A DNA stretch of 64,000 bases from Kiritimatiellota bacterium (GTDB lineage Bacteria; Verrucomicrobiota; Lentisphaeria; Oligosphaerales; JAADHN01): positions 122,624 to 186,623 of the forward strand of contig JAADHN010000111.1 of NCBI GenBank assembly GCA_013151865.1, given 5' to 3'. A model generated the notes under the pieces. It saw only the letters and a list, made by a program, of their open reading frames with translations. It searched no databases and was not told where the DNA came from. Within the stretch, counting starts at the first letter, position 1. Every line of letters begins with the position of its first letter. Positions 1 to 32,590 of this stretch are shown here, piece by piece. The translations under genes and the position numbers were made by a program.

Positions 1-608
1 GCCTGCAGAATTCGGTCGAAATCCCGGTGCGCAAACGGCTCGCCGCCCGAGAATGTAATTGAGAGCGTCCCCATTTCGGGCAGTTGCGCAAGCACGTCGA
101 GGGCCAGCGCCGTGTCAATCGGGCGCCCGGCGCCGCCGGGCGGGTAATAACAGTGAACGCATCGGAGGTTGCAGGCGGAGGTTACATCGATCTGCATGCC
201 GAAAACAGTGGGGCGTCGCTGAAAGTAATCGTAGAACCAGGCGGCGGAGTTCATCGGCACACCCACGGGGCCTCCGGCCGGCAGAATCACGGGAAAGTCG
301 TAAACGCGAGCGGACTTGCGAGCCAGTTCGTTCTCGTCGCGACCGGTCACGACGAATTTCTCGGCCTCCAGAATGGCGACAAACCGTTTGAAAGCAGCTT
401 CGACGTCAAAGCGGTGAATCCCCTCCAATTCCCTCGCAAGATCGTCGATGGCCGAGTCCAGGGTCCGCGGCGTGCGTGCCAAGCGTCGGAGATACGGTTG
501 CTCCGTCTCGTTGAAGAGGTGATCGACCTTGGTGCGCTGGTTCACCAGATAGGCGAAACCGTCGTAGAAGCGAGTGAACGAATCGTCATGCAGCTTTACG
601 AGAGTCAT
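1..608 (-). CDS. Radical SAM enzyme with N-terminal PqqD-like (RRE-type) peptide-binding domain; N-terminus complete, C-terminus runs off the left window edge
   Basis: Not in the supplied ORF track (no stop inside the window). Hand translation of the minus strand from ATG at 608 is open for all 202 codons: MTLVKLHDDSFTRFYDGFAYLVNQRTKVDHLFNETEQPYLRRLARTPRTLDSAIDDLARELEGIHRFDVEAAFKRFVAILEAEKFVVTG...VFGMQIDVTSACNLRCVHCYYPP...TLSITFSGGEPFAHRDF. CxxxCxxC (C146/C150/C153) and the GGEP motif are radical-SAM hallmarks. The first ~90 aa look like a PqqD/RRE domain (strands followed by three helices). Confidence 0.85.
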   Translation of the reverse strand, partial: MTLVKLHDDSFTRFYDGFAYLVNQRTKVDHLFNETEQPYLRRLARTPRTLDSAIDDLARELEGIHRFDVEAAFKRFVAILEAEKFVVTGRDENELARKSARVYDFPVILPAGGPVGVPMNSAAWFYDYFQRRPTVFGMQIDVTSACNLRCVHCYYPPGGAGRPIDTALALDVLAQLPEMGTLSITFSGGEPFAHRDFDRILQ

Positions 609-883
609 TCTTGTTCCGTTGTACTCGGGGCGCGGGGAACGCCGGCGGGAGAGGATCTCGGACTGAATCGACCGGGGCGGCTTTTCCTCTTCGTAGCCGT
701 CCCGCAGCGGGAGCGGGAGTGAAGGCTTGAACAACGGAACGCTGTCGAAAGCGCGGCGGCAAAAGACGGGAAAAGAGCGGACGTACCCGCGTCGGGCCCA
801 GACTTGCCCGAAGCCGGCGACGCGACGCCGTATTTCAGCTCAATCCTTCACATCGAGTCGGTGCGCCGGCCCATCGAACCGCG

Positions 884-899
884 AACCGGCGCACCGGTT
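884..899 (-). terminator. Stem-loop 11 nt downstream of the precursor stop codon (possible partial terminator or transcript stabiliser between precursor and rSAM gene)
   Basis: Perfect inverted repeat AACCGG-(4 nt)-CCGGTT. No adjacent U-run, so not a canonical intrinsic terminator. T-rich tracts (CTCTTTTCCCGTCTTTTG on the minus strand) follow about 100 nt further on. Confidence 0.3.
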
Positions 900-909
900 G
901 GCGGGCGGC

Positions 910-1128
910 TCATCCGCCGCCACCGCCGAAGATCGAAATGCCGCAGTTGGAACCGCCGTAAGACGCCCCGCCGCCACCGCCGCCGAAGATCGAAATGCCG
1001 CAGTTGGAACCGCCGTAAGACGCCCCGCCACCGCCGAAGATCGAGATGCCCCCGCCGCAGATGGCTTTCATCTCGTCGGCAGACACCGTAGTGTCCTCTG
1101 CCAAATCTGTGATCTTGATCCTGGCCAT
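910..1128 (-). CDS. RiPP/bacteriocin precursor peptide: double-glycine leader plus glycine-rich tandem-repeat core (72 aa)
   Basis: ATG at 1128 is preceded by AAAGGA 8 nt upstream. The supplied ORF 910..1323 is an upstream-extended version of this gene. Peptide: MARIKITDLAEDTTVSADEMKAICGG|GISIFGGGGASYGGSNCGISIFGGGGGGASYGGSNCGISIFGGGGG. Positions -12..-1 (VSADEMKAICGG) fit the double-glycine leader consensus LSxxELxxIxGG. High GC3. A C39-peptidase ABC exporter lies in the same locus. Confidence 0.85.
   Translation of the reverse strand: MARIKITDLAEDTTVSADEMKAICGGGISIFGGGGASYGGSNCGISIFGGGGGGASYGGSNCGISIFGGGGG
913..1050 (-). repeat. In-frame tandem DNA repeats encoding the precursor core (periods 57 and 51 nt)
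   Basis: 923-972 and 980-1029 are 50/50 nt identical. The third partial unit, 1031-1050, has 1 mismatch in 20 nt. The encoded units are GISIFGGGG(GG)ASYGGSNC. Confidence 0.9.
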
Positions 1129-1465
1129 GGGTCCGTTCCTTTCTGTCTTGCCGTGTCCGCACGGGGAACCACGGCGCTGCTCTGGTTCAACTCCAGCGAC
1201 GGCGTCTCGGAAATCCGGAGTCGACCGGCGCCGGCCCGACTTCAATCTCGCTTCCACGGGTCCGGTCGCACAAAAAACGCGCCGGCGCATTTCCGCCGAA
1301 ACCGAACGAATAATGTGCCGCAAGTTTCGTCTCCGGCACTTGGTGATACGTGGCGGCAGTTACTCCGTACCCGTCTTCAGTTCCGCTCGAAGTCGTGCGT
1401 CCTCTGGATGAGTCGGGACCGATTTCCACGGTCCACCCGACCGCATTTCGGTCCACCTTTCAATT

Positions 1466-1493
1466 AAAGTAACCAATTTGATCAATTTGTCAA
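1466..1493 (-). promoter_or_regulatory. Putative sigma70-type promoter for the precursor transcript
   Basis: An AT-rich patch in GC-rich DNA. The minus strand reads cTTGACAaattgatcaaattggtTACTTTaattg: a perfect -35 TTGACA (1488-1493), a 16-nt spacer, and -10 TACTTT (1466-1471, TAnnnT). The spacer contains the direct repeat CAAATTG-at-CAAATTG. Confidence 0.4.
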
Positions 1494-1592
1494 GTGCGCG
1501 CTGCCGGGAGACCGGTGTTTTCAAGCACAACGGCATCCGGCCGCACCGGCGTGATCGACCCGGTTCGACGCCGGGTGACGATCAGCGTTTTG

Positions 1593-2024
1593 TCATTCCT
1601 CTCCATCCAGTGCACCGCCGACGGCTTTGGCCAGCCAGTCCTGAAAAACCAATTCGCGGACCGTTTCCTTGACAGCCGGGGCGGCCATGTATGCCGCCGT
1701 GTCGGCCTCCGCCTCCAGCTTGTCCCGGAATTTGGAAATCAACAGGTTGGTTTCCAACCATTCTTCCCAGACCTCGGGGGTGAGACCGGAGATCTTGAGC
1801 CAAGCCATCGTGTCTTCCGCCTTGTTCAGTCCAGCCGCGGCGCGGGCCCCGTCGGCGGCCTTCTGCAACTCTTCGTCGCTGACCGACAAACCGGCTTCCT
1901 CGGCGGCGGCGCGGACCACCTTCCGTTGCACTACGTTACGCAGTGCAGTCGCGAACTGTCCGTTGATCCGCAGGCAGTTGAGCACCTCACCGACAGTGAC
2001 TTCCATCTCTTGGATTGCGGGCAT
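1593..2024 (-). CDS. SurA N-terminal-domain-like chaperone protein (143 aa), no PPIase domain, no signal peptide
   Basis: ATG at 2024 is preceded by AAGGAG 7 nt upstream. The sequence MPAIQEMEVTVGEVLNCLRINGQFATALRNVVQRKVVRAAAEEAGLSVSDEELQKAADGARAAAGLNKAEDTMAWLKISGLTPEVWEEWLE... aligns by eye with the N-terminal ~100 aa of the PpiC-type protein at 10092-10835 (shared SDEELQxAAD, TMAxL, GLT.E motifs). Confidence 0.7.
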   Translation of the reverse strand: MPAIQEMEVTVGEVLNCLRINGQFATALRNVVQRKVVRAAAEEAGLSVSDEELQKAADGARAAAGLNKAEDTMAWLKISGLTPEVWEEWLETNLLISKFRDKLEAEADTAAYMAAPAVKETVRELVFQDWLAKAVGGALDGEE

Positions 2025-2301
2025 GGTCTTTCTCCTTGATTTTGGCAAGCCCCGTGTTCCATTTGTGCTCCGGGCGGTCCGCCGGGGGCCCCACTTCGGA
2101 TCGCCGGGCCGGGAGCACAATAAAGAGCAGATCGATTACATTAATACAGTTTACGACGGTTTCACAAATTTGGCAACCCGGGACCAGAGGATTCTCTATG
2201 CCCCTCCCCGCCGGGACCGATGGATGTTGCGAACTTGTCCCGGCGGGACTGTCGCCCTCCCCCGAGTCCGAGCTTGTCCGCCGCCGTCGCACTTCCCGCC
2301 A

Positions 2302-3759
2302 CTACGGCATGAAAACACGCATCTCGCTGCGGAAATAAAAGATCCGAACAAGAACAAAAAGGTAATTGACCTGCGACCTCACATGGTTGAGCTTCGCGTT
2401 AAAATGGTCGGACTGAAACACCAACGTATCGAGCAGCAGACTGCGCCCGCCCCGGAGTCGGTCCAATTCCGCCTCCAAGTTCTTTGCGGTGATGTCCACC
2501 AGCTTCTCATCCAAGACGATTTCATCGGCAAGCCGTTTGAGTCTGACGAAGTCTTGGCTGAGCAGTTTTCGTATTTCATGTTCCCGATTCTTCTGGAGGA
2601 GCCGGTTCCGTTCCAGGGCGAGTTCGAGGGCCACGATCCGCTCTTGAATCGCCGTGTTCCCGACGGGCCAACTGAAATTCAATTCCACACCGATCAAGTA
2701 GTTCTGTGCGTCCAAGCCACTCACGGCGCGGACGGAATTGTCGTCATCGAAGCCGTAAACCGAGGCTTTCGCGGTCATGCCGAGACTTGGTCGGAGTTCG
2801 TCTCTGGCCTGCGTCAGGTCATAGAGCAATTGGTCCCCCTCGTTCCGAAGCGAGATCAACTGCTGGTCCCGCGCGCAAGCCAACCGGCAGCTCTCTTCCA
2901 ATGCGGGCATGGGCACTTGCGCTCTGATTCGTTCGAGATCGATGCGCGGCTTCACGTCGTCGAAAGCCCCGGTCGCGATTCTCGTGCGTACGGCGAATTG
3001 CAGTTGCTCAGCCAGGGTGCGAACCGCCTGCCTGCGCCTCAGGATGTCCTTCTCCTGTTCCAACACCACGGACTCAATCTTGTGCAGGTCGATGACGGGA
3101 ATGGCGTGCATTTCAAACTTTTCCTGGATGATCCGCAGGATTTCGCGCGAGTTTTTCAGGATTTCCTCGCCGATGACGAGATCTTGCCGAGCCTGGTAAA
3201 ACGCCAAATAGGCTTCCGCGACATCCCGAAGCACGGCGGATTCGATGGCCGCGCCGGTCTCCAGGTGGAAGCGCAACAGTCTGCGGGCCCGGGCGATATT
3301 CAATTCCGTGATGGTCCGCCCACGTCCTTTCAGGAGAGGTTGCGTGTAACTGATTCCCAATTCGGCTTGCGTCTCTTCGGCGCTGTCCGGAAACGAGAAA
3401 AGGCGGGAGGACTGGCGCGAAACCGTCATCCCCGCCGATGTTGTCCCACCGACCGAATTGAGTCGGTCGAGGCTCACGGTCCCGGAGTAGTTCCGCTGGT
3501 CACGGAGCCCGCTGAGCGCGAGTTCTCCATAGGTCCGACGGTCCCCGCTCACGTTTGACCGCAAGATCGGTTCGTAGATGGCCTGCTCCTCGACCAATCG
3601 GGCGGAAGCGCGTCGCACATCCAACTCCTGGACACGCAAGAGCTGATTCTCTCGCAACGCCTGTCGCAAGGCTTCGGCCAGAGAGAATTCCGGATTGCCG
3701 GCTGCTGCTTTGCCCATGAACACCGTCGCGCACGCGAAGAAAACCTGAAAACACGCCAC
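2302..3759 (-). CDS. TolC-like outer membrane efflux/channel protein (OMF); start uncertain (GTG 3759 or ATG 3717)
   Basis: Two-fold repeated coiled-coil/OEP-like sequence (LSLAEALRQALRENQLL..., TQPLLKGRGR..., LDLAQARDEL-type segments) of about 470-485 aa. Only the GTG at 3759 gives a hydrophobic N-terminus (ACFQVFFACATVFMGKAAAG). The part of ORF 2302..4212 upstream of that is Arg/Pro-rich junk. Confidence 0.8.
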   Translation of the reverse strand: MACFQVFFACATVFMGKAAAGNPEFSLAEALRQALRENQLLRVQELDVRRASARLVEEQAIYEPILRSNVSGDRRTYGELALSGLRDQRNYSGTVSLDRLNSVGGTTSAGMTVSRQSSRLFSFPDSAEETQAELGISYTQPLLKGRGRTITELNIARARRLLRFHLETGAAIESAVLRDVAEAYLAFYQARQDLVIGEEILKNSREILRIIQEKFEMHAIPVIDLHKIESVVLEQEKDILRRRQAVRTLAEQLQFAVRTRIATGAFDDVKPRIDLERIRAQVPMPALEESCRLACARDQQLISLRNEGDQLLYDLTQARDELRPSLGMTAKASVYGFDDDNSVRAVSGLDAQNYLIGVELNFSWPVGNTAIQERIVALELALERNRLLQKNREHEIRKLLSQDFVRLKRLADEIVLDEKLVDITAKNLEAELDRLRGGRSLLLDTLVFQSDHFNAKLNHVRSQVNYLFVLVRIFYFRSEMRVFMP

Positions 3760-4982
3760 GCGCCCGAATGCAGAAACGATGAACGGGAAAGGAGCCCTTG
3801 CGATACGAAGTGCGGTACGACAAACAACGAAAGACGGCGGAGTGCGGCGACCGTTCGAGGGGACAAACGGCAGGCGGCAGAGGCAGGAACAGCCCCGCCC
3901 GGAGAGAGCCGCGGACAGCGAACGGGGACACGCCGAATCTGAAGGACTTGCGCCTCCGACCCCGCCGTTTCTTTCCCCTGGGGCGCCGAAAGCGACGGTC
4001 GTCGCCAAGCCCCGACCGGGGCCGGTTAATCTGTCCGTGGCGTGCGTCATGAGGCGTCGGTTGGGTTCGGTGTCGGACTGGACGCAACCGGGCGTCCCTG
4101 CGGGTTCCGCGCCCCAGTGGGAACGGAGTACGCCTGATCGGTGGCATCCGGAAAATACTGGTGGCATTTGCGGAATACAAGGAACCCAACGCAAGTTCGA
4201 GCAACCGCACAATCCGATGGGGCAGGCCCCCCGTGAGGTCCGTCCGTCTCCAGGCCCGCTGTCGCGCCGTTTTGCACGAACGGTGTTCCCCGGCGCCGGG
4301 GGGGACGCGCCGTCAGCGACGCGTTACAAGTTCGAGTCCCTCGCATGCGCTGCGTACCTGGAGACCAAATTTGCATGAAGCATGAGCCATCTGCGCCAAT
4401 GCCGCTTTCAGACACCTTCAAGACATTGCTGCCGCCGCTGGCCGGGGCGGTGTTTCGATACGACCTCCTCCGGCGTTCGACGCAATGAGCCGGACTCGCA
4501 CAAACTGCGCTCCCTTGCAACGAAGTCCGTGAATGAATGAGACCCGACCCTTCTTATCTGAGACCGCAGGGCCCCCGCGAGCCTTTCGACAGAGTGGCCG
4601 TCCCATCGCGGGAGATGCGCCGGCGGGCATGTTCCAGCGCGGAAACCGCAGGCCTGCCGTCACACAGCAGCTGCCCGACGGTCTCGCCGCCCCGCGCTTT
4701 TGGAAGGGGGCGCGATCACTTGAATTCCGTCCGAAATGCAGCATACTTGAAAGTGCGGGGTCGGGGGTCGTATGCAGGCCGAATTCACCCCGCTCAGGTG
4801 CGAGCCATCTGGGTCGATGACCGGGCCGTAAAGACCGGAAAAGCAGCCGGGACCGTTTTTCGAGTCATGCAACAACTTGCCCGTGCGAAGGTTGCCTGCA
4901 CCCAGAACCGGCCCCTTCCAGGCTGCGAACGGGAACGTGCGGCACGAACTTGCAACCAGGTGTTAGAGCACACTGTTTTTTC

Positions 4983-7900
4983 ATGCAACACGCTGACCTG
5001 CTGTCTTTCATATCGGACCTCCCTCTCTTCTCGATCTACGATGAAGAGCGACTTGCCGCGTTCTTGGAGCAGATGTCCCTTGTCTCGTACAGCGCCGGGG
5101 AGGTGGTGTTCGAACAAGGCGATGCGGGGGACACTTTCTATGTGGTGTACAGCGGCCGCATCCGCATCCTCATGCGCCGGAACGGCAGCGATGTAAACCT
5201 CGGCGTCCTGCGCAAAGGCGACCACTTCGGCGAGTCTGCTCTCATCACCGACCACCCCCGCACTGCGACGGCTCGCGCTGTGGAAGACAGCGTGCTGCTT
5301 GTGGTCTCGCGCGAAGATTTCACCACCTTCCTTTTGGCGGAACCGGCACATCGCGACTACTTCGACAAGTTGATGCGCAGTGCGGCGATCGATCGGTTCC
5401 TCAAATCCACCTCGACCCTGGGGAAAGTGGGGCGCAACGAGGTGGCGGAACTGGTCCGGTGCTTCAAGCCGCAAACCTTTGGCGAAGGCGAGGCCGTATT
5501 TCGGCAGGGCTCAGTCGCCGACAAATTCTATCTGGTCGAAAGCGGGAAGCTCAAAGTCGTGCGCTGGACGGATCAAGAGCACGAAATCTTGAATTTCCTG
5601 CGCGAGGGCGACTTCTTCGGAGAGAAAGCCCTCGTGGAAGACACGACCCGGTACGCGGACGTGATCTGTCTGACGCCCTGCAAATTGTTTGCGATGCACA
5701 AAGACGACTTTGACGCGCTGATCCAGAAATCGCCGAAGCTGCGCCGTATCATCCAAGACCGCATCGAATCCTACAAAACCCCTCCTCCCATCCCCTATAA
5801 GGAGGTCATCAAGCAGGAGCTTGCCGCCCTGAAGGAGACGAAGGTGACGGCGGGGGAAGACGCCGAAAAGGCCGTGCGAGAGGACCGCGGCGCGGCGCAG
5901 AAAACCGCCCGTCGCCGTCGTTCCCGCAAGCCCGCCCGTCGGTTCCCTTTCATCCGGCAGTACGACGAGATGACGTGCGGCACCACCTGCCTTATGATGA
6001 TCTCCAGGTTCTATGGCAAGAACTTTGCCTCGGCCCGGTTGCGGGAACTGGCGCACGTGGACGTGAGCGGCGCATCGCTGGCGAACCTGGCGACGGCGGC
6101 CGAGCAACTGGGGTACACCACACGCGCCCTGAAACTGAAATACGACGGGCTTCGTTCCGTCCCGCTTCCCTGCATCGTGCACTGGCAAGGGTATCACTAC
6201 ATCGTGGTGCATAAAGTGTCGGACCGATACGTGTGGGTTGCGGACCCCGCAATCGGCTTGCGCAAGTACGACCGGGAGCACTTCGAAAAGAATTGGAGCG
6301 GCATCACCCTGACCCTGACCCCTACCGCCTCGCTGGAGGAACAGACTGACGACCGGTCTTCGCTGCGCAACTTCCTGCGGTTCGTTACCCCCCACCGGAA
6401 AACGTTGATTGAAGTCCTCATTGCTTCGGTACTGCTGAATATCTTCGGCCTGGCTACGCCCATCTTCACCCAGAATGTCGTGGATAAAGTGCTGACCCAC
6501 AACAATACATCTATGCTGAACATGCTGTTCATCGGCATGTTGCTGGTTTTGTTCTTCCGAATCATGGTCATGTTCGTGCGCCAGTACCTGATCGTCCACA
6601 TCAGCATGCAGATTGATCTGAAGATGCTCGTGGCATTCTACCGGCACATGCTCGCATTGCCGCTGGGATACTTTAAAGCTCGGAAGGTGGGTGATTTCGT
6701 CTCGCGATTCGGGGAAAACCAGAAGATTCGCGCCTTCATGACCCACACTGCCCTGAGTCTTATGTTGGACGTGGTCTTACTGGTGGTATACCTCGGAATG
6801 ATGTTTTACTACAACACCAAGATGGCCGCGTTGACGATGGTCTTCATCCCATTCGTCGCGGCAGTCACCCTGGTCTTCACGCCGATCCTCCGTCGACTCA
6901 ACATCGACGCCTTTCAAGCTCATGCGGAGGCCGATTCGCACTTGATCGAATCCATCACGGGCATCGACACGATCAAAGCCCTGCACGCCGAATCGCCTGT
7001 GCGTTGGAAGTGGGAAGACAAGTACATTCGCAGCATGAACATCGACTTCAAGCTGACCAATGCAGGCATGATGTTCAGTGCCTTCGGCGATCTGGTCGGC
7101 ACGCTCAGTGCGACCGTTCTGCTCTGGTTCGGTGCGCATCAAGTCATGGCGGGGGCCCTCACCGTCGGTGAACTGATGGCTTTCATGGCCCTGATGGGCA
7201 GTGTAATGGTCCCGGTCAACCGTGTGATCGGCGCCTGGGACGACATTCAGCAGACGCTGGTTTCAGTCGACCGCCTCAACGACGTTTTCAGCGCCAAGCG
7301 TGAGTTCGCCGACGCGGACGCCGGCCACAGCGGGGTCCCCCTGGAGGACGTGCCGTGCACAATCGAATTCAAGGACGTGTTTTTCCGTTATGGCGGCAAC
7401 GACGATCCATATATTCTCTCCAAGATCAACTTGAAACTCCCGGCGGGCAAATCCCTGGCCTTGGTCGGACGCAGCGGCTCGGGAAAAAGTACATTGGTCA
7501 AGCTGTTGGCACGTTTCTGGGACGTCACTGAAGGGCAGATTCTCATCAACGGCGTCAATGTTCGACATATCGATTTGAACTGCCTGCGGCGCATGATCGG
7601 ATTTGTATTGCAGGAGACCTTCATCTTCAACGGAACGGTTCGGGAGAACATTGCCTACGGCGAGCCGGAAATGGATTTCAGCCGAGTATTGCGAGCGGCG
7701 AAGATGGCCAATGCCCACGACTTCGTCACCACATTGCCCTTTGGCTACGACACGCGTGTCGGGGAAAGCGGCGTGCAACTGTCCGGCGGGCAAAAACAAC
7801 GCATCGGGATCGCCCGGGCACTGTATGCCGAACCCAGGGTCCTGGTCTTCGACGAAGCGACCAGTTCCCTCGATTCCGAGTCGGAGCAGGCCATTCAGAA

Positions 7901-8087
7901 GAATATGCAAGGCATTCTTGCGGACAAAACCTCCATCATCATAGCTCACCGTCTCAGCACAGTCCGGGATGCCGATGTGATCGCCGTACTGGACAATGGC
8001 GAGGTCGTCGAACAGGGCTCCCACACTGAATTGATGGAAAGCAAGGGCCTCTATCACTTCTTGGTGCACCAGCAGTTGAATCTGTGA
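4983..8087 (+). CDS. Bacteriocin-type ABC exporter: 2x cyclic-nucleotide-binding domain + C39 cysteine peptidase + TMD + NBD (1034 aa)
   Basis: cNMP phosphate-binding cassettes FGESALITDHPRTATARA and FGEKALVEDTTRYADVIC. C39 motifs QYDEMTCGTTC (Cys codon 5976-5978), HYIVVHK and ADPA. Six-helix TMD region. Walker A GRSGSGKST, signature LSGGQKQR, Walker B VLVFDEATSSLD, H-loop IIIAHRLS. ATG 4983 is chosen because the domain begins directly after it; no clear SD. Confidence 0.9.
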   Translation: MQHADLLSFISDLPLFSIYDEERLAAFLEQMSLVSYSAGEVVFEQGDAGDTFYVVYSGRIRILMRRNGSDVNLGVLRKGDHFGESALITDHPRTATARAVEDSVLLVVSREDFTTFLLAEPAHRDYFDKLMRSAAIDRFLKSTSTLGKVGRNEVAELVRCFKPQTFGEGEAVFRQGSVADKFYLVESGKLKVVRWTDQEHEILNFLREGDFFGEKALVEDTTRYADVICLTPCKLFAMHKDDFDALIQKSPKLRRIIQDRIESYKTPPPIPYKEVIKQELAALKETKVTAGEDAEKAVREDRGAAQKTARRRRSRKPARRFPFIRQYDEMTCGTTCLMMISRFYGKNFASARLRELAHVDVSGASLANLATAAEQLGYTTRALKLKYDGLRSVPLPCIVHWQGYHYIVVHKVSDRYVWVADPAIGLRKYDREHFEKNWSGITLTLTPTASLEEQTDDRSSLRNFLRFVTPHRKTLIEVLIASVLLNIFGLATPIFTQNVVDKVLTHNNTSMLNMLFIGMLLVLFFRIMVMFVRQYLIVHISMQIDLKMLVAFYRHMLALPLGYFKARKVGDFVSRFGENQKIRAFMTHTALSLMLDVVLLVVYLGMMFYYNTKMAALTMVFIPFVAAVTLVFTPILRRLNIDAFQAHAEADSHLIESITGIDTIKALHAESPVRWKWEDKYIRSMNIDFKLTNAGMMFSAFGDLVGTLSATVLLWFGAHQVMAGALTVGELMAFMALMGSVMVPVNRVIGAWDDIQQTLVSVDRLNDVFSAKREFADADAGHSGVPLEDVPCTIEFKDVFFRYGGNDDPYILSKINLKLPAGKSLALVGRSGSGKSTLVKLLARFWDVTEGQILINGVNVRHIDLNCLRRMIGFVLQETFIFNGTVRENIAYGEPEMDFSRVLRAAKMANAHDFVTTLPFGYDTRVGESGVQLSGGQKQRIGIARALYAEPRVLVFDEATSSLDSESEQAIQKNMQGILADKTSIIIAHRLSTVRDADVIAVLDNGEVVEQGSHTELMESKGLYHFLVHQQLNL

Positions 8088-8173
8088 GAAAAAGCCGCCC
8101 TGAAGAGGGGCGGCGCCTGCGGACGGAAGTTCCTTTCCTTCCGTGTCGGCTCAAACGAGAGGTACGTCGGTTC

Positions 8174-9523
8174 ATGCCGCCGGAGAAGAACACGACAAAT
8201 GACTCGCCGGAAGCTGCGGATGCGGGCATTTCCGAGGAAATGTCGTCGGAAAGTTTCTTGGTTACCGAGCAACTTCAGCGGGTTCCGAACCTGGTTGCAC
8301 GCGGGTTGATCTATATCGTGTCCCTTCTCGTGGTAACGATCCTGCTCTACACCCACTTTGTCCGGATCGACATTCTTTCCAGAGGGCAGGCAGTCGCTCG
8401 ACCCACGGCGCACAAGGTTCGAATTCTCGCCGACCGCCGGGGCTATGTCGACCGTGTGTTGGTGAAAGAAGGACAGCGAGTGGCTGCCGGCGACGCGCTT
8501 TTCGCGATCCGGTCCCGGGCGAACATTGACCGCGAAGCGCGCTACGCCGAACTGAAGATCACGATCCCGCTGAAAGAAGCTCACTTCAAACAGCGCCGGG
8601 CCCTAACGGCGGAGAAACTCCGAACCCTGCAGAATTCTTCCGCTTATCGCCGGAAGGTCCTCGCCTTGCGGAAAGAAAAGAACGCACTCGCCCGCGCCCG
8701 CGCCGAAATCGATATCCGTTATTGGACGCAACAGGTCGAAACGCTCGCCGAAAGCCTTGCCCGAGCCAGGAGCATGTTCGAAAAGAACATCACGACCCTG
8801 GAAGACTACAACGCCGCAAAGGGACGGCTCGAACACGCCAAGGCGCAACGGGATAAGTCGTCCAATGAACGCCAAACGTATCTGAAAGAAGCCGAGATCA
8901 TCGAAGCCGAAATCAAGGAGGAAGAAGCCAACCTTTCGAGTCAAACCGAAATCGTCCGGGGCGAAGGCCGCAGCATTGAGCTGGAGGCGCAAAGCACGTT
9001 GACAGCCATGCGCAACGAGATGAAGCTTTGCGAGGACATACTCTCGGTCCAGTCCCCCATCGGGACCACGGCCACGAAGCCGGAGGGCGTACTGACAATG
9101 ATCCGAACCGCAACGCCGGGCGCCATTTCGGAGTTGTTTGTCCGCGCCCCCGGTGCCTACGTGCGAGACGGCGACCTGTTGTGCACCGTGGTTCCGGCCG
9201 GCAGTCCCTTGTACATGGACATCGTCCTGGCCAATAAGGACATTGGTTTTATTACCGAGGGGATGCCGGTCAAGTTCAGGTTCGATGCATTCTCCTACAG
9301 AGACTACGGGGCGCTCGCGGGGCGGGTCGAATCCATCTCTCCGTCCGCCGTGGAAGACCCGACCATGGGGTTGGTGTACCACGTACGAGGCGTGCTCGAT
9401 CAACCCGGCTTCAAGATCGATGGAAAACTGTACCGGGTTAAACCCGGAATGACCGCCACAGCAGAACTCGTGACCGAACAAAGGACCTTGTTTTCTATTC
9501 TTGTCAGCAAACTCCGCAGGTGA
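8174..9523 (+). CDS. HlyD-family membrane fusion/adaptor protein of the exporter
   Basis: N-terminal TM helix (LIYIVSLLVVTILLY), lipoyl-like hairpin motifs (GYVDRVLVKEGQRVAAGDALF ... GAYVRDGDLLCTVVP), long coiled-coil middle, beta-barrel C-terminus. Immediately downstream of the ABC gene. GAGAGG lies upstream of ATG 8174. Confidence 0.85.
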   Translation: MPPEKNTTNDSPEAADAGISEEMSSESFLVTEQLQRVPNLVARGLIYIVSLLVVTILLYTHFVRIDILSRGQAVARPTAHKVRILADRRGYVDRVLVKEGQRVAAGDALFAIRSRANIDREARYAELKITIPLKEAHFKQRRALTAEKLRTLQNSSAYRRKVLALRKEKNALARARAEIDIRYWTQQVETLAESLARARSMFEKNITTLEDYNAAKGRLEHAKAQRDKSSNERQTYLKEAEIIEAEIKEEEANLSSQTEIVRGEGRSIELEAQSTLTAMRNEMKLCEDILSVQSPIGTTATKPEGVLTMIRTATPGAISELFVRAPGAYVRDGDLLCTVVPAGSPLYMDIVLANKDIGFITEGMPVKFRFDAFSYRDYGALAGRVESISPSAVEDPTMGLVYHVRGVLDQPGFKIDGKLYRVKPGMTATAELVTEQRTLFSILVSKLRR

Positions 9524-10091
9524 TCCCGAAAGGATCCCCAACAAGGCCGGGACGCTTCCCGACGGAACCGCCGCCGTTTTCCTGCACGACGCTGCAGTTG
9601 TCCCGCGACAACCTGAGCCGAAACACCAGGCACGCCAATTGTGGGACACGGCCCGACACCCCCGGCGGTGTCGGGAGAGTGATGTCGAGTTTTTATGCGC
9701 CTTGCACACTCCCCGCACAAGAGAACCACGTTTCTCGGCTCGCCCGGATGCACGCCCGCGGAAGCAGCCATATATTGAGCGTTGCGAAAGTTCCGTCGAA
9801 AACTGGCACAACTGGCCCCTTGATGGACGTCGACCGGGAAAAGACGTCGTGGAACGCGGCCGACCAACGCCCCGCAGCCGCAAGAACGGACTGCTTTGCG
9901 AACCGGCCCCAGGGCGCGGTCGAGCTGCCCGTGCGAAGACACCCCCTCCCATTCGGCCGCGTTCCGTCGAGGCGGAAGCAGCAGGACACAGACCGCTCAG
10001 GATTGTCGCGGCGATTGTGCGGAAGGCGCGGGTATCGCCCGTGCCCAGCTTGTTTCGAGGTGATCGGCCCCCCAACACCGGGAGATAAGTG

Positions 10092-10835
10092 ATGGAATTC
10101 AAGTATGCCCGTGGAAGCGTTACCAGCGAGGATCTCATTGGGTTGCTGGTGTTCTCGGGGCGGATGGACGCCTTGCTGAAAGAGGCCATCGAGAGGCGCG
10201 AAGTGCGGCGCAAGGCAATGGAATTGGACATCCGGGCGAGCGACGAGGAACTTCAGGCAGCCGCGGACCGGCTCCGGAAAGAGCTTGGTTTGGTCCGAGC
10301 GGACGTGACCATGGCTTTCCTTACCGGCTTCGGGCTCACGGTCGAGGACCTGCAGGAGTACTGCGAGTTCGAGGCGTTGCGGGAAAAGGTCCGGGAACGT
10401 CTGACGCCGGAAGCCAAGATCAACGAGTATTTTCTGAATTACCGTGCCGATTTCGACCGTGCCACCATCTCGATCATTACCGTCGACAGCGAGGAACTCG
10501 CCCGAGAGTTGATCATGCGGGTCGTGGAAGACGGCGAAGATTTCCACGAATTGGCGAGTGAGTATTCACTTGATGAAGGGACCCGCGAAAACGGCGGAAG
10601 GGTCGGCGCCGTCCCACGAAGCGCTTATTCGCCGGAAGTGAGCGCCAAAATATTCAACGCAGACCCGGGTGACGTGGTCGGACCGTTCTCGTTGGGCGAC
10701 CGCTCCCTTCTGATCTTGGTCGAGAAGGTGGAAAAAGGCGGGCTGACCGACGAAGCGAGGACCGCGGTCCGGGATCGGATTTATCAGGATTGGCTCCATG
10801 CATTCCTGCGCGCCGGGATCTCCGTCGCGTCCTGA
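10092..10835 (+). CDS. PpiC/parvulin-type peptidyl-prolyl isomerase with SurA_N-like N-terminal domain, no signal peptide
   Basis: GGAG lies 7 nt upstream of ATG 10092. The C-terminal half (ISIITVDSEELARELIMRVVEDGEDFHELASEYSLDEGTRENGGRVGAVPRSAYSPEVSAKIFNADPGDVVGPFSLGDRSLLILVEKV) has the rotamase/parvulin pattern. The N-terminal half is paralogous to the 1593-2024 product. Confidence 0.8.
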   Translation: MEFKYARGSVTSEDLIGLLVFSGRMDALLKEAIERREVRRKAMELDIRASDEELQAAADRLRKELGLVRADVTMAFLTGFGLTVEDLQEYCEFEALREKVRERLTPEAKINEYFLNYRADFDRATISIITVDSEELARELIMRVVEDGEDFHELASEYSLDEGTRENGGRVGAVPRSAYSPEVSAKIFNADPGDVVGPFSLGDRSLLILVEKVEKGGLTDEARTAVRDRIYQDWLHAFLRAGISVAS

Positions 10836-11095
10836 GGCGCGGAAGGAGGCCGACGTGGCGGGCACGGAGGAAATCGGATGACGGCCTGGGAAAAAGCCGA
10901 CCGCGGAGAACTCTGGCGCCGTCCACCGCGGCTCCCGCCGCCCTTTCGGACGCCCCCTTTCTTCAGCGCATGAGGCGGTAACGGCAACGCGCCCTTGAGG
11001 CGTCCGTTCGATTCACGGCGGGCTGAGCGGTCGCGCGTCCGGGCAGAAGGCCCGGCAACTCGCGATTGGAACGCCGGTGAAGGCGAGGAAGAACC

Positions 11096-11326
11096 ATGGC
11101 AAGAATCAAGTTTGAAGATTTGGAGGAAGTCACGGCGACAAAGGCAAAGATCAACCTTGGCGGCCTGCTTCACGAGACAGCCGTGAACGGACGCCAATTC
11201 GTTGTCAATCGGCAGGGCAAACCGGTGTCGGTAATCCTCAGCTACAACGACTACCGCGACCTGCTGGCTGAGCTGGAGCGGTTGCGCCGAATACGAGGAC
11301 CCGACACGCTCCCATCTCTTCGGTAA
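11096..11326 (+). CDS. Phd/YefM-family antitoxin-like protein (76 aa), no adjacent toxin gene
   Basis: GAGGAAG SD. VTATKAKINLGGLLHETAVNGRQFVVNRQGKPVSVILSYNDYRDLLAELE matches the Phd/YefM N-terminal fold pattern (compare YefM [47 protein letters not shown]). Confidence 0.7.
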   Translation: MARIKFEDLEEVTATKAKINLGGLLHETAVNGRQFVVNRQGKPVSVILSYNDYRDLLAELERLRRIRGPDTLPSLR

Positions 11327-11626
11327 AGCAACGACTCGGGACGCCGCCCCCCGGCCAAGCCGCCGGTCCCATATCCTATTCTCGGATGCCGGCCAAGAAC
11401 ACACGCCGAGGCGCGCACATGGAACATGCGCATGGGGCGACTTGTGAGTCTCGTGCGATCGACGTTTCGGTTCGCCCGCCGAGAGGCACGGCCCTCCCGC
11501 ACCGCGGGATCGCCCGCCACGGGCGAACGAATGACCGGACTGTGCGTTCGTCACGGAAATACGCGCGCCCGAGCGGGCATGGGTGAGTCCTGAAGTTTAT
11601 TTGTGAACACAAAAGGCACCTCGACG

Positions 11627-12133
11627 ATGACCGAGAACGGCGTTCGACCCGAGCGACATCGCCCGGCCTGGAACGAGTATTTCCTCAAGTTGGCTATGCT
11701 CGCCTCGGAGCGGGCCACCTGCCCGCGCATGCACTGCGGCTGCGTGCTGGTCCGCGACCGCTTCGTCCTGGCAACGGGATACAACGGCTCATTGCCCGGA
11801 GCACCTCACTGTGACGAGGTCGGTTGCATGGTCGTCAACGGACACTGCGTCCGCACGAACCACGCGGAGATCAACGCCATCTGTCAAGCCACACGTCACG
11901 GTGTGATCCTGACCGGCGCCACTGCGTACGTGACCAACATGCCCTGCACGGCCTGCGCCAAGGCCCTGATCGCCGCCGGAATCGAGCGGGTCATCGTGTT
12001 CTCCGAGTATCACGATACACTTGCAGAACGCTTTTTTAAGGAATCCGGCGTGCTCTTGGAACGTCTCCCGATGCCCGACCGGGAAATTCACTACGATTTG
12101 GACGCTTTTGCGTCTGCCGCCCCGCCTGTCTGA
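11627..12133 (+). CDS. dCMP/CMP deaminase (ComEB-like zinc deaminase)
   Basis: Zinc-binding motifs HAEINAI and PCTACAKAL. The WNEYFLKLAMLASERATC N-terminus is typical of dCMP deaminases. Confidence 0.85.
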   Translation: MTENGVRPERHRPAWNEYFLKLAMLASERATCPRMHCGCVLVRDRFVLATGYNGSLPGAPHCDEVGCMVVNGHCVRTNHAEINAICQATRHGVILTGATAYVTNMPCTACAKALIAAGIERVIVFSEYHDTLAERFFKESGVLLERLPMPDREIHYDLDAFASAAPPV

Positions 12134-12191
12134 GTTTTCGGCCGGCTCGGGGGGCACCCGACCGGCCCCGTCGAGGGACCACGGAGGTCTG

Positions 12192-14405
12192 ATGCTTTGG
12201 TGTTTCGCCAATAGGCTGGCACTCAAGGACGTCGGTCGCCCGGGCCGCCTCTTGGCCGCGGTCCTTTTGTGCTTGGCCTGGAGCGCGGTTGTCCGGAGCC
12301 GCGCACGTGCTTCCGGTCGAGATCCCGCCACGGACGGGCGCGGGACTCTCTCCCGGGAATCGCACTTGGACCCTCCCGCGAACAGCGCTGGTTTGCCGGA
12401 GGCGCACGGCGCGGCTTTTCTGTCCCGCCGACCCCGACCCGGCGCACCCCGACGGGCCGAATCGAAGTCGGTCGACCCCGTTGTCGTGCCGGACGCCACG
12501 GGGACCGCCACCCCCGCCGCCCGAAGATGCCCGAGGTTTGCGAAGTCCGCGCTGGGGACCGGACAGAGGGTCCTGTCAGGGCCATGGGCAGCAATCGGCC
12601 TGGTCGACACCCCGAGCGAGTCTCCCGACACGGAAATCACCGCCCGAGGCGATGCACCAAGGGAAAACACCGCGGTACTGAGCATATCGAGCCAGCCCGA
12701 TCCGGGGGTGTGGATCGAGTATCGGTTTCCGGACGGCACAATTGGAGCCCGTCCCACACCATTCGATCTGACCGTCGCGCCGGGGACAAGATTGGAACTG
12801 ACCGCGCCATGGTCATCCGGCGGGAAATACTTCCTGACGTGGGAATCGAGCGCGCTTCGGGAACGGGTCCTGCACATCACTCACAACGTCACGGTGGATG
12901 CCGACATCGCGGCTGTCGCCTCGTACGGAGTCGTGACCGATTTCTATGTAAACGACTCCGCGCCCGACCCGGAACTCGGGATTGCGGCGGGTTCCGATTC
13001 GTTTCCCGGCACATCCCCCGAGGCCCCCGCAGCCGGAATCCAGGCTTTGTTGGACCATTACCCCAGGCTGGGGAACGGCATCACGCTGCACGTGGCGCCC
13101 GGCACATATCCTGAGAATGTCGTACTCCGAAGCGGACACACGGGTCTGAAAGTGATCGGCGCCGGGGATGCCTCGATCATAGACGGCGGAGCTACAGGCC
13201 CCTGCCTGACCTTGACCGGCTTTGCCACGGGGACGGTCAGCGGCCTGCAGCTCCGCAACGGACTCGCCGAGTCCGGCGGCGGTCTGCTGTGCACCGACGG
13301 TTCTTCCCCGGACCTGATCGGCCTGCAGATAACGAGCAACAACGCCACGCGGGCCGGCGGGGGGACCATGATTCGGCAGAGCGGCCCCCACATGGTAAAC
13401 TGCGTGATCACCGGCAACACCGCCCCGACCGGCGGGGGGATCGCGTGCGAAGCAGGCGCTTTTCCGGCGTTCATCAACTGCACCTTCAGCGGAAATCGAG
13501 CGACCTTGTACGGCGGCGCCGTGTGGCTGGACGGTGCGTTGCCCGACTTTGCCAACTGCATTTTCTGGGGCGACACCGCCCCGGCGGGACTCGAGTTCGC
13601 CATGGGCAACTGGTCGGAACCATGGGTCTGGAACAGCGACGTGGCAGGCGGTGAGGCCGCGGCCTTGATCCTAGACGAGGGAGGCTCCCTGTTCGGACAA
13701 TACACCGCGAACAAGGACGCCGACCCGAGGTTCGTTCGACCGGGACAGTGGTCGGACAACGGCTGGACGGCGGGCGACTATCGCCTCCTGCCCGATTCTC
13801 CCGTTGTGGACAGCGGCGACAATTCGGCGCTCCCAACAGGACTGAATACCGACAAAGCGGGCGGTCCACGCATTCTGCCGGCGGACTCCGGCCTTGTGGA
13901 CATGGGCGCTTTCGAAGCCGACAGCGACACGCAGTGGCTCGATTTCACGCTGGCGCTCGATTTGGGTTGGAACTTGATCTCGGTTCCATTCGAACCGGCC
14001 GACGGAAGTCCGACGGCCGTACTCGGCCCCGACGTGGCGCTCCCGGTGTGGACATGGGACGGCGCCAGGTACACCCAGGCACAGTCTATTCAACCGGGAT
14101 GCGGGTATTGGGTGTTCGCGTTTTTGCCGGTCCAGCGGACGCTCTTCGGACAGGAGGCCGCGGCGGCGGTCGTTTCGGTCGAGACCGCCGGCTGGCGCCT
14201 CGCGGGGCCGGTGACCACGACGCCTTTCCCCGACCTGCCCCTCCCGCCGGTCGTTACTCCCGCAGTCGCGGTGGACTCGCGGTTCTGGGTATGGGAAACG
14301 AGCGGCCAACGCTACCGCCTCGCGCACAAGCTTCCTGCCGGTCAAGCTGTCTGGATTTACGTTTTTGGACCGTGCACCGTCGAACTTGCGCCGCCTTCCC
14401 CGTGA
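12192..14405 (+). CDS. Secreted right-handed parallel beta-helix repeat protein (function unknown)
   Basis: GGAGG SD. Signal-like N-terminus (LLAAVLLCLAWSAVV). Repeated G-x-x-x-GGG(I/L)/N-C-x-F turns (GGGLLCTDGSSPDLIGLQITSNNA, GGGIACEAGAFPAFINCTFSGNRA, GGAVWLDGALPDFANCIFWGDTA) are typical of beta-helix/PbH1 repeats. Confidence 0.6.
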   Translation: MLWCFANRLALKDVGRPGRLLAAVLLCLAWSAVVRSRARASGRDPATDGRGTLSRESHLDPPANSAGLPEAHGAAFLSRRPRPGAPRRAESKSVDPVVVPDATGTATPAARRCPRFAKSALGTGQRVLSGPWAAIGLVDTPSESPDTEITARGDAPRENTAVLSISSQPDPGVWIEYRFPDGTIGARPTPFDLTVAPGTRLELTAPWSSGGKYFLTWESSALRERVLHITHNVTVDADIAAVASYGVVTDFYVNDSAPDPELGIAAGSDSFPGTSPEAPAAGIQALLDHYPRLGNGITLHVAPGTYPENVVLRSGHTGLKVIGAGDASIIDGGATGPCLTLTGFATGTVSGLQLRNGLAESGGGLLCTDGSSPDLIGLQITSNNATRAGGGTMIRQSGPHMVNCVITGNTAPTGGGIACEAGAFPAFINCTFSGNRATLYGGAVWLDGALPDFANCIFWGDTAPAGLEFAMGNWSEPWVWNSDVAGGEAAALILDEGGSLFGQYTANKDADPRFVRPGQWSDNGWTAGDYRLLPDSPVVDSGDNSALPTGLNTDKAGGPRILPADSGLVDMGAFEADSDTQWLDFTLALDLGWNLISVPFEPADGSPTAVLGPDVALPVWTWDGARYTQAQSIQPGCGYWVFAFLPVQRTLFGQEAAAAVVSVETAGWRLAGPVTTTPFPDLPLPPVVTPAVAVDSRFWVWETSGQRYRLAHKLPAGQAVWIYVFGPCTVELAPPSP

Positions 14406-31504: not shown

Positions 31505-31897
31505 ACCGGGGCCGGCCGTGCAGCATGTCTTCGTTCGCGGACAGAATCGGTCCGGCGGCCTCCGCCTTGACCAACCCTTCATGGGGCGGCCGAAAGGCCT
31601 GTCGCTGTATTCGCCGGAACGCCGGGAGTCCGCCGCACTTGTCCCGAACGCGGACGAAAGGGACCTCGGTGGACAGGTCGTGCCGGGATTGCCGCGGGGA
31701 CCGCGGACTCCAATGCCCTTGGTCCCGGGAATTCGAATGAAGCGACCGACCCGTCGCGGGACTGTGCTGAGCCTGGACCGGGCGCAGGTAGGCGCAATCC
31801 CGGATGGACCGGGTTGCACCGGGCAGCCTGACGGCGTACATGTTCCATTCGCGTGCACCGAAAAGTCATGACATACACGGGATCGAGGACAAAGCCG

Positions 31898-32590
31898 ATG
31901 CTCCTTGTGGCGGATGCACATGTCAGCGTCGAGAACGGAAACGTCGATTCGTTCTTCGCCATGCTGGACCGCATCGCGGACACCGATGAGGGCGTGGTTT
32001 TCCTGGGCGACATCCTCGAACTCTGGATCGGCTTACCCCGCTACGAGACGGATCTGCACCGTCGCTTCCTGGCATGGTGCCGGAAGCAGTGCGACCGAAG
32101 GACAGTCGGATTTGTCGAAGGCAACCACGAGTTTTTCGTGGCTCGTCACCATGCCGACGCATTCTCGTGGTGCGCCGCACGGGAATACCGGGACGGCGAA
32201 TGTCTCTACGCCCACGGCGATTTGATCGATGCCGCGGACCGCGGCTACCGTCTGTTTCGGGCTTTGACCAAGAATGGAGCGGCCCATTGGTTGCTCGCCC
32301 ATGCCCCGGGCATCCCGGCCTTGGTCGGTCGGATCAAGAGCGGCATGGAACGAAGGTCGCGCCGGTGCGCGAAACATGTGCCCGAACGCGACGCAGCGCG
32401 CTTTGCCGAGGCATGTTTTGCCCAGGGTATTCGACTCGTTGCGACCGGGCATTTTCACCGCTTCCACCAGTATGTTTCGGGGAATGGGGTCAACCGGTTG
32501 ATCGTGACGCCGGCGTGGGGGGAGAGTGAATGTGTGGTCCGTGTGCGAACGGACGGCAAAGTGGAGGTCGTGCATGGGCGGGAAATTTGA
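31898..32590 (+). CDS. Calcineurin-like metallophosphoesterase (LpxH-like)
   Basis: Motifs VADAHV, GDILE(L), GNHE, HGD and GHFH in canonical order. GAGGA lies 7 nt upstream of ATG 31898. Confidence 0.7.
   Translation: MLLVADAHVSVENGNVDSFFAMLDRIADTDEGVVFLGDILELWIGLPRYETDLHRRFLAWCRKQCDRRTVGFVEGNHEFFVARHHADAFSWCAAREYRDGECLYAHGDLIDAADRGYRLFRALTKNGAAHWLLAHAPGIPALVGRIKSGMERRSRRCAKHVPERDAARFAEACFAQGIRLVATGHFHRFHQYVSGNGVNRLIVTPAWGESECVVRVRTDGKVEVVHGREI

Follow-up and report, generated by a model that had tools for sequence, protein, structure and literature searches.

A long-type peptidase-containing ABC transporter with two canonical cyclic-nucleotide-binding cassettes, proposed to act as a ligand sensor for peptide processing or export

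In peptidase-containing transporters of the ATP-binding cassette (ABC) class (PCATs), the C39 peptidase domain binds the leader of the substrate peptide, cuts after Gly-Gly, and passes the core to the transmembrane path for ATP-driven export. The peptidase domains of PCAT1 reportedly dock on the inward-facing transporter and are released on ATP binding. Here we describe a transporter of this kind from a Kiritimatiellota bacterium, which carries two cyclic-nucleotide-binding (CNB) domains in front of the peptidase. It is encoded at positions 4983–8087 of a 64,000-nucleotide stretch of DNA (contig JAADHN010000111.1 of assembly GCA_013151865.1, positions 122,624 to 186,623), referred to as the window. 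On balance, we favour the reading that it is a long-type PCAT in which the CNB pair senses a ligand and thereby controls peptide processing or export.

The C39 ABC transporters of cyanobacteria were divided into short and long types by Wang, Fewer, and Sivonen in 2011 (PMC3140520). The extra N-terminal region of the long type was assigned to CAP_ED (PMC3140520; PMC4558948) and given a 'putative transcriptional regulative function', and the long-type clusters were described as carrying HlyD and a SurA protein with a rotamase domain (PMC3140520). An N-terminal extension on C39 ABC transporters had been noted already before 2011 (PMC3140520; PMC4558948), and 'cyclic nucleotide-regulated ABC bacteriocin/lantibiotic exporter' is a product name in use in GenBank. 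HetC from Nostoc sp. PCC 7120 is a family member that was studied in 2024 (PMC10986499). Its peptidase and ATPase residues are essential, removal of residues 2–278 abolishes its function, and loss of hetC changes the transcription of several genes. HetC's N-terminal region binds guanosine tetraphosphate (ppGpp; dissociation constant 59 μM), GTP, and GDP, and shows no response to cyclic AMP (cAMP), cyclic CMP (cCMP), cyclic di-GMP (c-di-GMP), or 2-oxoglutarate; cyclic GMP (cGMP) is absent from the list of tested ligands (PMC10986499). The literature searched yielded no further experiments on the module. The architecture is not new; it has been described and named before, and it is widespread. 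An earlier reading of the window, made from the sequence only, had supposed that gating of peptide secretion by cyclic nucleotides was mechanistically uncharacterised. As a claim of novelty this is too broad, given the description of the architecture in 2011 and the study of HetC in 2024, but it stands insofar as no allosteric mechanism or structure exists.

The open reading frame (ORF) of the window protein is uninterrupted from the ATG at 4983 to the stop codon at 8085–8087 and encodes 1034 residues. The N-termini of homologues favour this ATG over an upstream TTG at 4950. The protein and its parts are located as follows, with the supporting evidence in parentheses.

4983–8087, + strand: long-type peptidase-containing ABC transporter composed of CNB-A, CNB-B, linker, C39 domain, transmembrane domain (TMD), and nucleotide-binding domain (NBD) (ORF, Pfam, TIGR01193)
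4983–5342, + strand: CNB-A, residues 1–120, with the Pfam core at residues 34–117 = 5082–5333 (PF00027, structure model)
5226–5279, + strand: phosphate-binding cassette A, FGESALITDHPRTATARA, residues 82–99, including G83, E84, R93, T94, and A95 (alignment)
5343–5771, + strand: CNB-B, residues 121–263 including the connecting helix, with the Pfam core at residues 164–249 = 5472–5729 (PF00027)
5616–5669, + strand: phosphate-binding cassette B, FGEKALVEDTTRYADVIC, residues 212–229, including G213, E214, R223, Y224, and A225 (alignment)
5772–5942, + strand: linker, residues 264–320 (family alignment)
5943–6329, + strand: C39 peptidase, residues 321–449 (PF03412, 129.6 bits)
6405–7214, + strand: ABC exporter transmembrane domain (ABC_membrane), residues 475–744 (PF00664, 174.7 bits)
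7416–8084, + strand: ATPase domain, residues 812–1034 (PF00005, ABC_tran, 110.6 bits over residues 812–961)

When the whole protein was scanned with Pfam, PF00027 (cNMP_binding, for cyclic nucleoside monophosphate) scored 169.4 bits over two stretches. With the halves scanned separately, CNB-A (residues 34–117) scored 94.0 bits (E = 5e-27) and CNB-B (residues 164–249) scored 84.6 bits (E = 5e-24), against a gathering score of 27.5 bits. The profile check asked for in the sequence-only reading hence confirms its two domains ahead of C39. Its placement of them at 4983–5733 is also sound, as this range equals residues 1–250, which is the two-domain module minus its last helix. Both cassettes that it had pointed out are present, the second one keeping the Arg and having RYA instead of R[ST]A.

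The remaining domains are those of a PCAT. The catalytic Cys of the C39 domain is residue 332, with its codon at 5976–5978 as previously proposed. Because Gln326, Cys332, His405, and Asp421 all lie in invariant alignment columns, and the Cys and His are retained in all of the 142 relatives with sequence at those positions, the C39 domain is predicted to be an active-type peptidase and not a C39-like domain of the HlyB kind. The matches to PF00664 and PF00005 bear out the earlier view that TMD and NBD are complete, and the ATPase motifs are readable in the translation, including Walker A (GRSGSGKST), signature (LSGGQKQR), Walker B (VLVFDEATS), and H-loop (AHRL). The protein scores 530.5 bits with TIGR01193 (bacteriocin_ABC, peptide cleavage/export ABC transporter), above the cut-off of 523.85, and 559.1 bits with TIGR03796 (NHLP-family bacteriocin exporter subunit), below the cut-off of 853.3. 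Having the cNMP extension, the C39 domain with Gln, Cys, His, and Asp, the TMD and NBD, and the cluster partners of the long type, it is almost certainly a leader-cleaving PCAT.

The structure of residues 1–460 was predicted with AlphaFold2 from an alignment of 24 sequences. The model has a mean predicted local distance difference test (pLDDT) score of 84.9, and both barrels and the C39 domain are confident. Each CNB domain is modelled as an eight-stranded β-barrel with flanking helices (pLDDT 85–96). The best Foldseek matches to the model in PDB are the regulatory subunits of protein kinase A (PKA) and the CNB pair of protein kinase G (PKG), with E values of 1e-24 to 1e-18. A single continuous alignment pairs residues 9–258 with the two CNB domains of PKA RIα (4mx3 residues 129–369, E = 5e-23). 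In the HMMER alignment, cassettes A and B match PKG/PKA-type phosphate-binding cassettes residue for residue. Cassette A is fully canonical (G-E...R-T-A); cassette B retains the Gly, Glu, and Arg, and a Tyr follows the Arg. This Tyr is common to the closest relatives (loci L003, L004, L006, L007, and L008) and is a trait of the subclade. Across 62 family members, the Gly, Glu, and Arg of cassette A occur in 95%, 89%, and 69%, respectively. The linker behind CNB-B has a motif, PPIPYKEVIKQELAAL, which is kept in the close subclade and is followed by a variable charged segment in the alignment. PDB sequence searches retrieved no chain that joins a CNB module to a C39-ABC unit, and PCAT1, ComA, and HlyB align with the protein only from about residue 318 on.

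The architecture was traced by an exhaustive HMMER search with residues 1–460 against 1.84 billion cluster representatives, which gave 514 matches at E ≤ 1e-30. Among the best 150 matches, at least 55 are 990–1110 residues long and collinear from their own N-terminus. In a scan of one genome per species, a relative is encoded in 551 genomes. For the best 80 of these 551, the match begins within the first 36 residues, mostly within the first 16, and reaches at least residue 411; they span Latescibacterota, Thermodesulfobacteriota, Acidobacteriota, Verrucomicrobiota, Planctomycetota, Gemmatimonadota, Armatimonadota, Paenibacillus, and others. The nearest relatives, with 52–59% identity, are from metagenome genomes of Latescibacterota and Thermodesulfobacteriota, the closest being a Latescibacterota genome (59%) and a Syntrophaceae genome (57%). 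All of the 82 related loci have the CNB pair and then the ABC part in collinear order, with HlyD adjacent in 58 and the rotamase protein in 28.

Retention of the cassettes was assessed with 144 mostly non-cyanobacterial N-termini, which were taken from cluster representatives and genome loci and may overlap in part. The G-E...R triad is intact in both domains of 93/144, in CNB-B only of 25/144, in CNB-A only of 14/144, and in neither domain of 12/144. At least one domain with an intact triad is thus found in 132/144; the class with both intact includes the window protein and those nearest to it. This retention suggests selection for a phosphate-ribose ligand. Both arginines are lost in the Burkholderia and Caballeronia versions. 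In 66 cyanobacterial N-termini and in Nostoc sp. HK-01, CNB-A reads FGE.TLFP...PY.ARA without the phosphate-binding Arg, and CNB-B has no cassette. As judged from these alignments, the family splits into a canonical-cassette branch and a degenerate-cassette branch, and the cyanobacterial loss of cassettes fits the single domain seen by Pfam in HetC. The cassette-degenerate cyanobacterial proteins (L083 5065–8145 on a Nostoc sp. HK-01 plasmid; P0256–P0352) are annotated as 'cyclic nucleotide-regulated'.

Several apparent departures from the fused architecture were also inspected. A split CNB-pair gene upstream of the transporter, as called in two metagenome assemblies of close relatives (L001 10001–13026 and L002 10001–13110), was rejected, as three-frame translation revealed single frameshifts in continuous homology; these gene splits are assembly artefacts. 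In L001, what looks like a 'small ORF' behind HlyD is likewise the C-terminal end of HlyD, shifted in frame. The 'stand-alone' two-CNB proteins adjoining PCATs in databases may include frameshift artefacts as well. Two proteins, P0201 (405 residues, 32.7-kb contig) and P0196 (567 residues, 351-kb contig), have cNMP_binding and Peptidase_C39 without ABC domains. These may represent leader peptidases that are soluble and regulated by CNB domains, or else truncated gene calls, and the alignment of P0196 appears frameshifted past the first transmembrane helices.

The genes clustered with the transporter are as follows.

8084–9523, + strand: HlyD-family periplasmic adaptor (HlyD_3, HlyD_D23; TIGR01843 149.8 bits, below cut-off)
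10089–10835, + strand: PpiC/SurA-like rotamase protein (rotamase family matches; TIGR04500 78.6 bits, below cut-off)
2302–4212, − strand: TolC-like outer-membrane factor, ORF as listed (PF02321 OEP 77.4 bits; TIGR01844 51.6 bits, below cut-off)
1593–2024, − strand: small SurA_N-like protein (SurA_N_3 26.9 bits, cut-off 27.2; TIGR04500 53.7 bits)
910–1128, − strand: probable substrate, a 72-residue double-glycine-leader precursor with a Gly-rich core (translation, leader family)
3–608, − strand: radical S-adenosylmethionine (rSAM) enzyme, N-terminal 202 residues, running off the window start (PF04055 40.5 bits; CNLRCVHC cluster motif)

The probable substrate has a leader, MARIKITDLAEDTTVSADEMKAICGG, followed by a core in which a 19-residue unit, GISIFGGGGASYGGSNC, occurs about 2.5 times. 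The core is encoded by a 57-nt tandem repeat, with the unit GISIFGGGG(G)ASYGGSNC, and the single Cys of each unit could be a site of cross-linking by the rSAM enzyme. No Pfam or NCBIfam family matched the precursor. Its leader belongs to the same family as the MARIKIEDLPKDMEISREEMRKILGG leaders of small ORFs with unrelated cores, which adjoin the transporter genes of the nearest relatives; L001 has eleven of them, and L002, L004, and L006 have one each. The precursor is therefore tied to the transporter beyond mere proximity. The eleven genes of L001 are arranged in tandem at 4884–8899, just upstream of the transporter, with cores of 11–96 residues, and represent a hypervariable substrate array.

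The best NCBIfam matches of the rSAM enzyme are rSAM/SPASM peptide maturases, all scoring far under the cut-offs owing to the truncation of the protein at the start of the window. About 135 residues precede its CxxxCxxC motif and possibly form a precursor-recognition region. The sequence-only reading had raised the co-occurrence of the transporter fusion with rSAM enzymes. This does not hold in general, at least for the enzyme in the window: a homologue was found near the transporter in 0/82 loci, with the truncated 202-residue N-terminal piece as the query and other rSAM families not screened.

Two related SurA_N-like modules are present in the cluster, one being the short stand-alone protein (1593–2024, −) and the other the N-terminal part of the rotamase protein (10089–10835, +). 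The TIGR04500 model, which both proteins match, the rotamase protein below its cut-off, is named 'putative peptide maturation system protein'. In L003 and L004, copies of the short protein, 52–54% identical, are encoded directly after the rotamase gene.

The TolC-like, SurA_N-like, precursor, and rSAM genes on the − strand are transcribed divergently from the transporter operon on the + strand, in which the start of the HlyD gene overlaps the stop of the transporter gene by 4 nt. The true start of the TolC-like gene is probably near 3830 because of a signal-like hydrophobic stretch; if so, a divergent intergenic region of about 1.1 kb (~3832–4982) separates it from the transporter gene. A 566-bp gap (9524–10088) between the HlyD and rotamase genes, which are nearly adjacent in relatives, has no convincing coding potential and no ORF with homologues. 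Rfam gave no match in 1–12500, including this gap and the divergent region. No CRP-box-like site was found in the window, and no sigma-70-like promoter or terminator in 3600–5100. The cluster ends after the rotamase gene, because a Phd/YefM-type antitoxin gene (11096–11326, +) and a dCMP deaminase gene come next. The antitoxin gene has no obvious toxin partner; among relatives, L001 has a Phd/YefM gene beside the precursor array and L002 a ParE toxin gene after the rotamase gene. The rest of the window is ordinary chromosome, with genes for DnaJ, a MurE-like ligase, a penicillin-binding protein, a sulfatase, glycoside hydrolases, and a two-component pair.

Compared with the cyanobacterial long type (groups I, II, and VI), the window protein has the same domain order, in which a CAP_ED/cNMP extension of about 300 residues is followed by C39, TMD, and NBD. 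The neighbours are shared as well, including the HlyD adaptor, the rotamase/SurA-like protein, and double-glycine precursors, and the modification enzyme resembles that of group II. On the Nostoc sp. HK-01 plasmid (L083), the order is transporter, HlyD, hypothetical protein, and PpiC. Unlike the cyanobacterial long type, the window cluster is from a non-cyanobacterial genome, adds a TolC-like gene and an rSAM enzyme, and has a transporter with both cassettes canonical, whereas they are degenerate in the cyanobacterial sequences examined. HetC is likewise a cNMP-C39-ABC exporter of nearly equal length, with the catalytic Cys at 347 instead of 332. It differs in that Pfam sees one cNMP domain (residues 60–146), and also in its ligands, ppGpp or GTP and not cAMP, in the lack of an adaptor gene beside hetC, and in its action in heterocyst development (PMC10986499). 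With two recognisable CNB domains, the window protein falls outside a HetC type defined by one such domain and cyanobacterial-style cassettes, where the comparison of cassettes rests on the cyanobacterial relatives of HetC.

The two halves of the window protein have separate counterparts. Residues 318–1028 align with residues 10–721 of PCAT1 from Clostridium thermocellum (4ry2, E = 6e-147) with the catalytic residues kept, but PCAT1 and ComA, for which structures have been solved (e.g. 4ry2, 8hf4), are short-type proteins of Gram-positive bacteria, without the N-terminal CNB pair and without HlyD/TolC partners. The CNB-A and CNB-B domains of PKA regulatory subunits and PKG share with the window protein the two consecutive domains with a connecting helix and the canonical cassette, and are its best structural matches; they control a separate or fused kinase, whereas a peptidase-transporter lies in the same polypeptide here. 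The TIGR03896 family (cyc_nuc_ocin, 'bacteriocin-type transport-associated protein') is an unfused version that ties two CNB domains to bacteriocin-type export. With this model the window protein reaches 69.8, short of the cut-off of 161.05, and its module is fused to a transporter instead of standing alone.

Cleavage of the double-glycine leader and export of the core through a conduit of HlyD and TolC-like proteins are well supported. The transporter is most likely the inner-membrane part of a three-part peptide exporter (ABC, HlyD, TolC-like), and its CNB pair would act as a small-molecule sensor with four domains per homodimer. Binding of the ligand would change the shape of the pair, as in PKA regulatory subunits, and via the linker of about 60 residues this would alter the docking of the peptidase on the transporter or the access of substrate. 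Release of the rSAM-modified Gly-rich peptide would then depend on a second messenger. Nucleotide gating of cleavage or export, as put forward in the sequence-only reading, is a reasonable proposal. We consider ligand-dependent control by the CNB pair to be fairly probable, and by analogy HetC counts in its favour, with an N-terminal module that is both functionally required and nucleotide-binding. That the ligand is a 3',5'-cyclic nucleotide is plausible though short of probable, with cAMP or cGMP being the likeliest candidates in view of the two canonical cassettes, which the cyanobacterial relatives examined do not have. More tentatively, the canonical-cassette branch may represent a true cAMP/cGMP-gated peptide exporter, in which a PKA-like CNB pair toggles the peptidase between two states, one docked and competent for cleavage, the other undocked.

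A PKA-like autoinhibitory role of the linker as a pseudo-substrate was considered and rejected. A conserved linker segment, PPIPYKEVIKQELAALKET, resembled the leader helix, EISREEMRKILGG, with equal hydrophobic spacing. A scoring matrix made from 13 leaders was scanned across the whole protein and compared with shuffled sequences, of which a fraction of 0.38 to 0.95 reached the observed score; with the helix columns of the matrix, the linker is not the top-scoring place in the protein. As the matrix score is no better than that of shuffles and the linker is also of low confidence in the model, the idea was dropped, and a pseudo-substrate segment as in PKA is not demonstrable in the window protein.

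Several observations weigh against a CNB pair that senses a cyclic nucleotide and controls the transporter. HetC, the only studied member, did not bind cAMP (PMC10986499). About one third of the relatives are without the Arg in one or both domains but still have the module, which may therefore act in part independently of a ligand. The Tyr in CNB-B of the window protein occupies a position that is usually Ala, Ser, or Thr. In the structure model, the linker has pLDDT scores of 59–78 and the predicted template modelling score is 0.52, which makes the inter-domain arrangement unreliable and gives support to no docking mode. Among the large ORFs of the window, there is no nucleotide cyclase or dedicated cNMP phosphodiesterase, the sole candidate being a generic Metallophos protein (31853–32590).

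The ligands of the HetC N-terminal region, which bound ppGpp, GTP, and GDP but not cAMP, cCMP, or c-di-GMP (PMC10986499), favour a CNB pair that senses a non-cyclic guanine nucleotide (ppGpp or GTP) and ties export to the stringent response or energy state, and both architecture and operon layout match those of the cyanobacterial relative L083. However, the result for HetC may not transfer to the window protein, because the 66 cyanobacterial relatives and Nostoc HK-01 have neither the CNB-A Arg nor a CNB-B cassette, whereas the window protein is canonical in both domains; the ligand list of the HetC study, moreover, did not include cGMP (PMC10986499). We regard guanine-nucleotide sensing as unlikely here. 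The same cyanobacterial clade, having lost the cassettes and kept the module, could instead point to a ligand-independent scaffold that serves dimerisation, docking of the precursor or the rotamase/SurA-like partner, or positioning of the peptidase. It would be in line with the 12/144 relatives lacking the triad in both domains, a count that includes frameshifted assemblies such as L001, and with the co-occurrence of the rotamase protein with long-type transporters. A pure scaffold is nonetheless improbable, because 65% of relatives retain the Gly, Glu, and Arg in both cassettes at an overall identity of only ~30–35%, which is hard to explain without a ligand, and the HetC module does bind nucleotides (PMC10986499).

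Another effector of the fold, such as 2-oxoglutarate, haem, a gas, or a nucleoside, would be compatible with the diverse ligands taken by the CRP/FNR/NtcA fold (PMC10986499) and with the presence, among the structural matches, of PKA regulatory subunits from trypanosomes in complex with nucleosides (inosine, guanosine). It is a distinctly improbable choice for the window protein, whose ribose-phosphate contacts in CNB-A, G-E and R-T-A, are canonical. Binders of alternative ligands within this fold typically have altered cassettes. As to a transcriptional regulatory role of the N-terminal extension, it would accord with the function suggested by Wang et al. in 2011 (PMC3140520) and with the altered transcription of several genes upon loss of hetC (PMC10986499), but Pfam and NCBIfam searches found no helix-turn-helix or other DNA-binding domain in the protein, the module is tethered to a membrane transporter, and kinase regulatory subunits outrank CRP-type regulators in both sequence and structure matches. 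Such a role is scarcely credible.

The reading of the CNB pair as a ligand sensor bears on an architecture that is widespread, yet has HetC as its sole experimentally probed member, with an unexpected ligand and from a degenerate-looking lineage. As a discovery, the window protein adds little new, and its main value is that of an experimental candidate for the question HetC left. With canonical cassettes in both domains and a substrate that can be identified close by, it is better suited than HetC to the question of a response to cAMP or cGMP. If the canonical-cassette branch were truly gated in this manner, a second messenger would license the release of an rSAM-modified peptide post-translationally, and the protein would become the first ABC exporter for which gating by a cyclic nucleotide has a defined mechanism. 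Control of this sort would let the cell stockpile the inactive, leader-bearing peptide and release it on signal.

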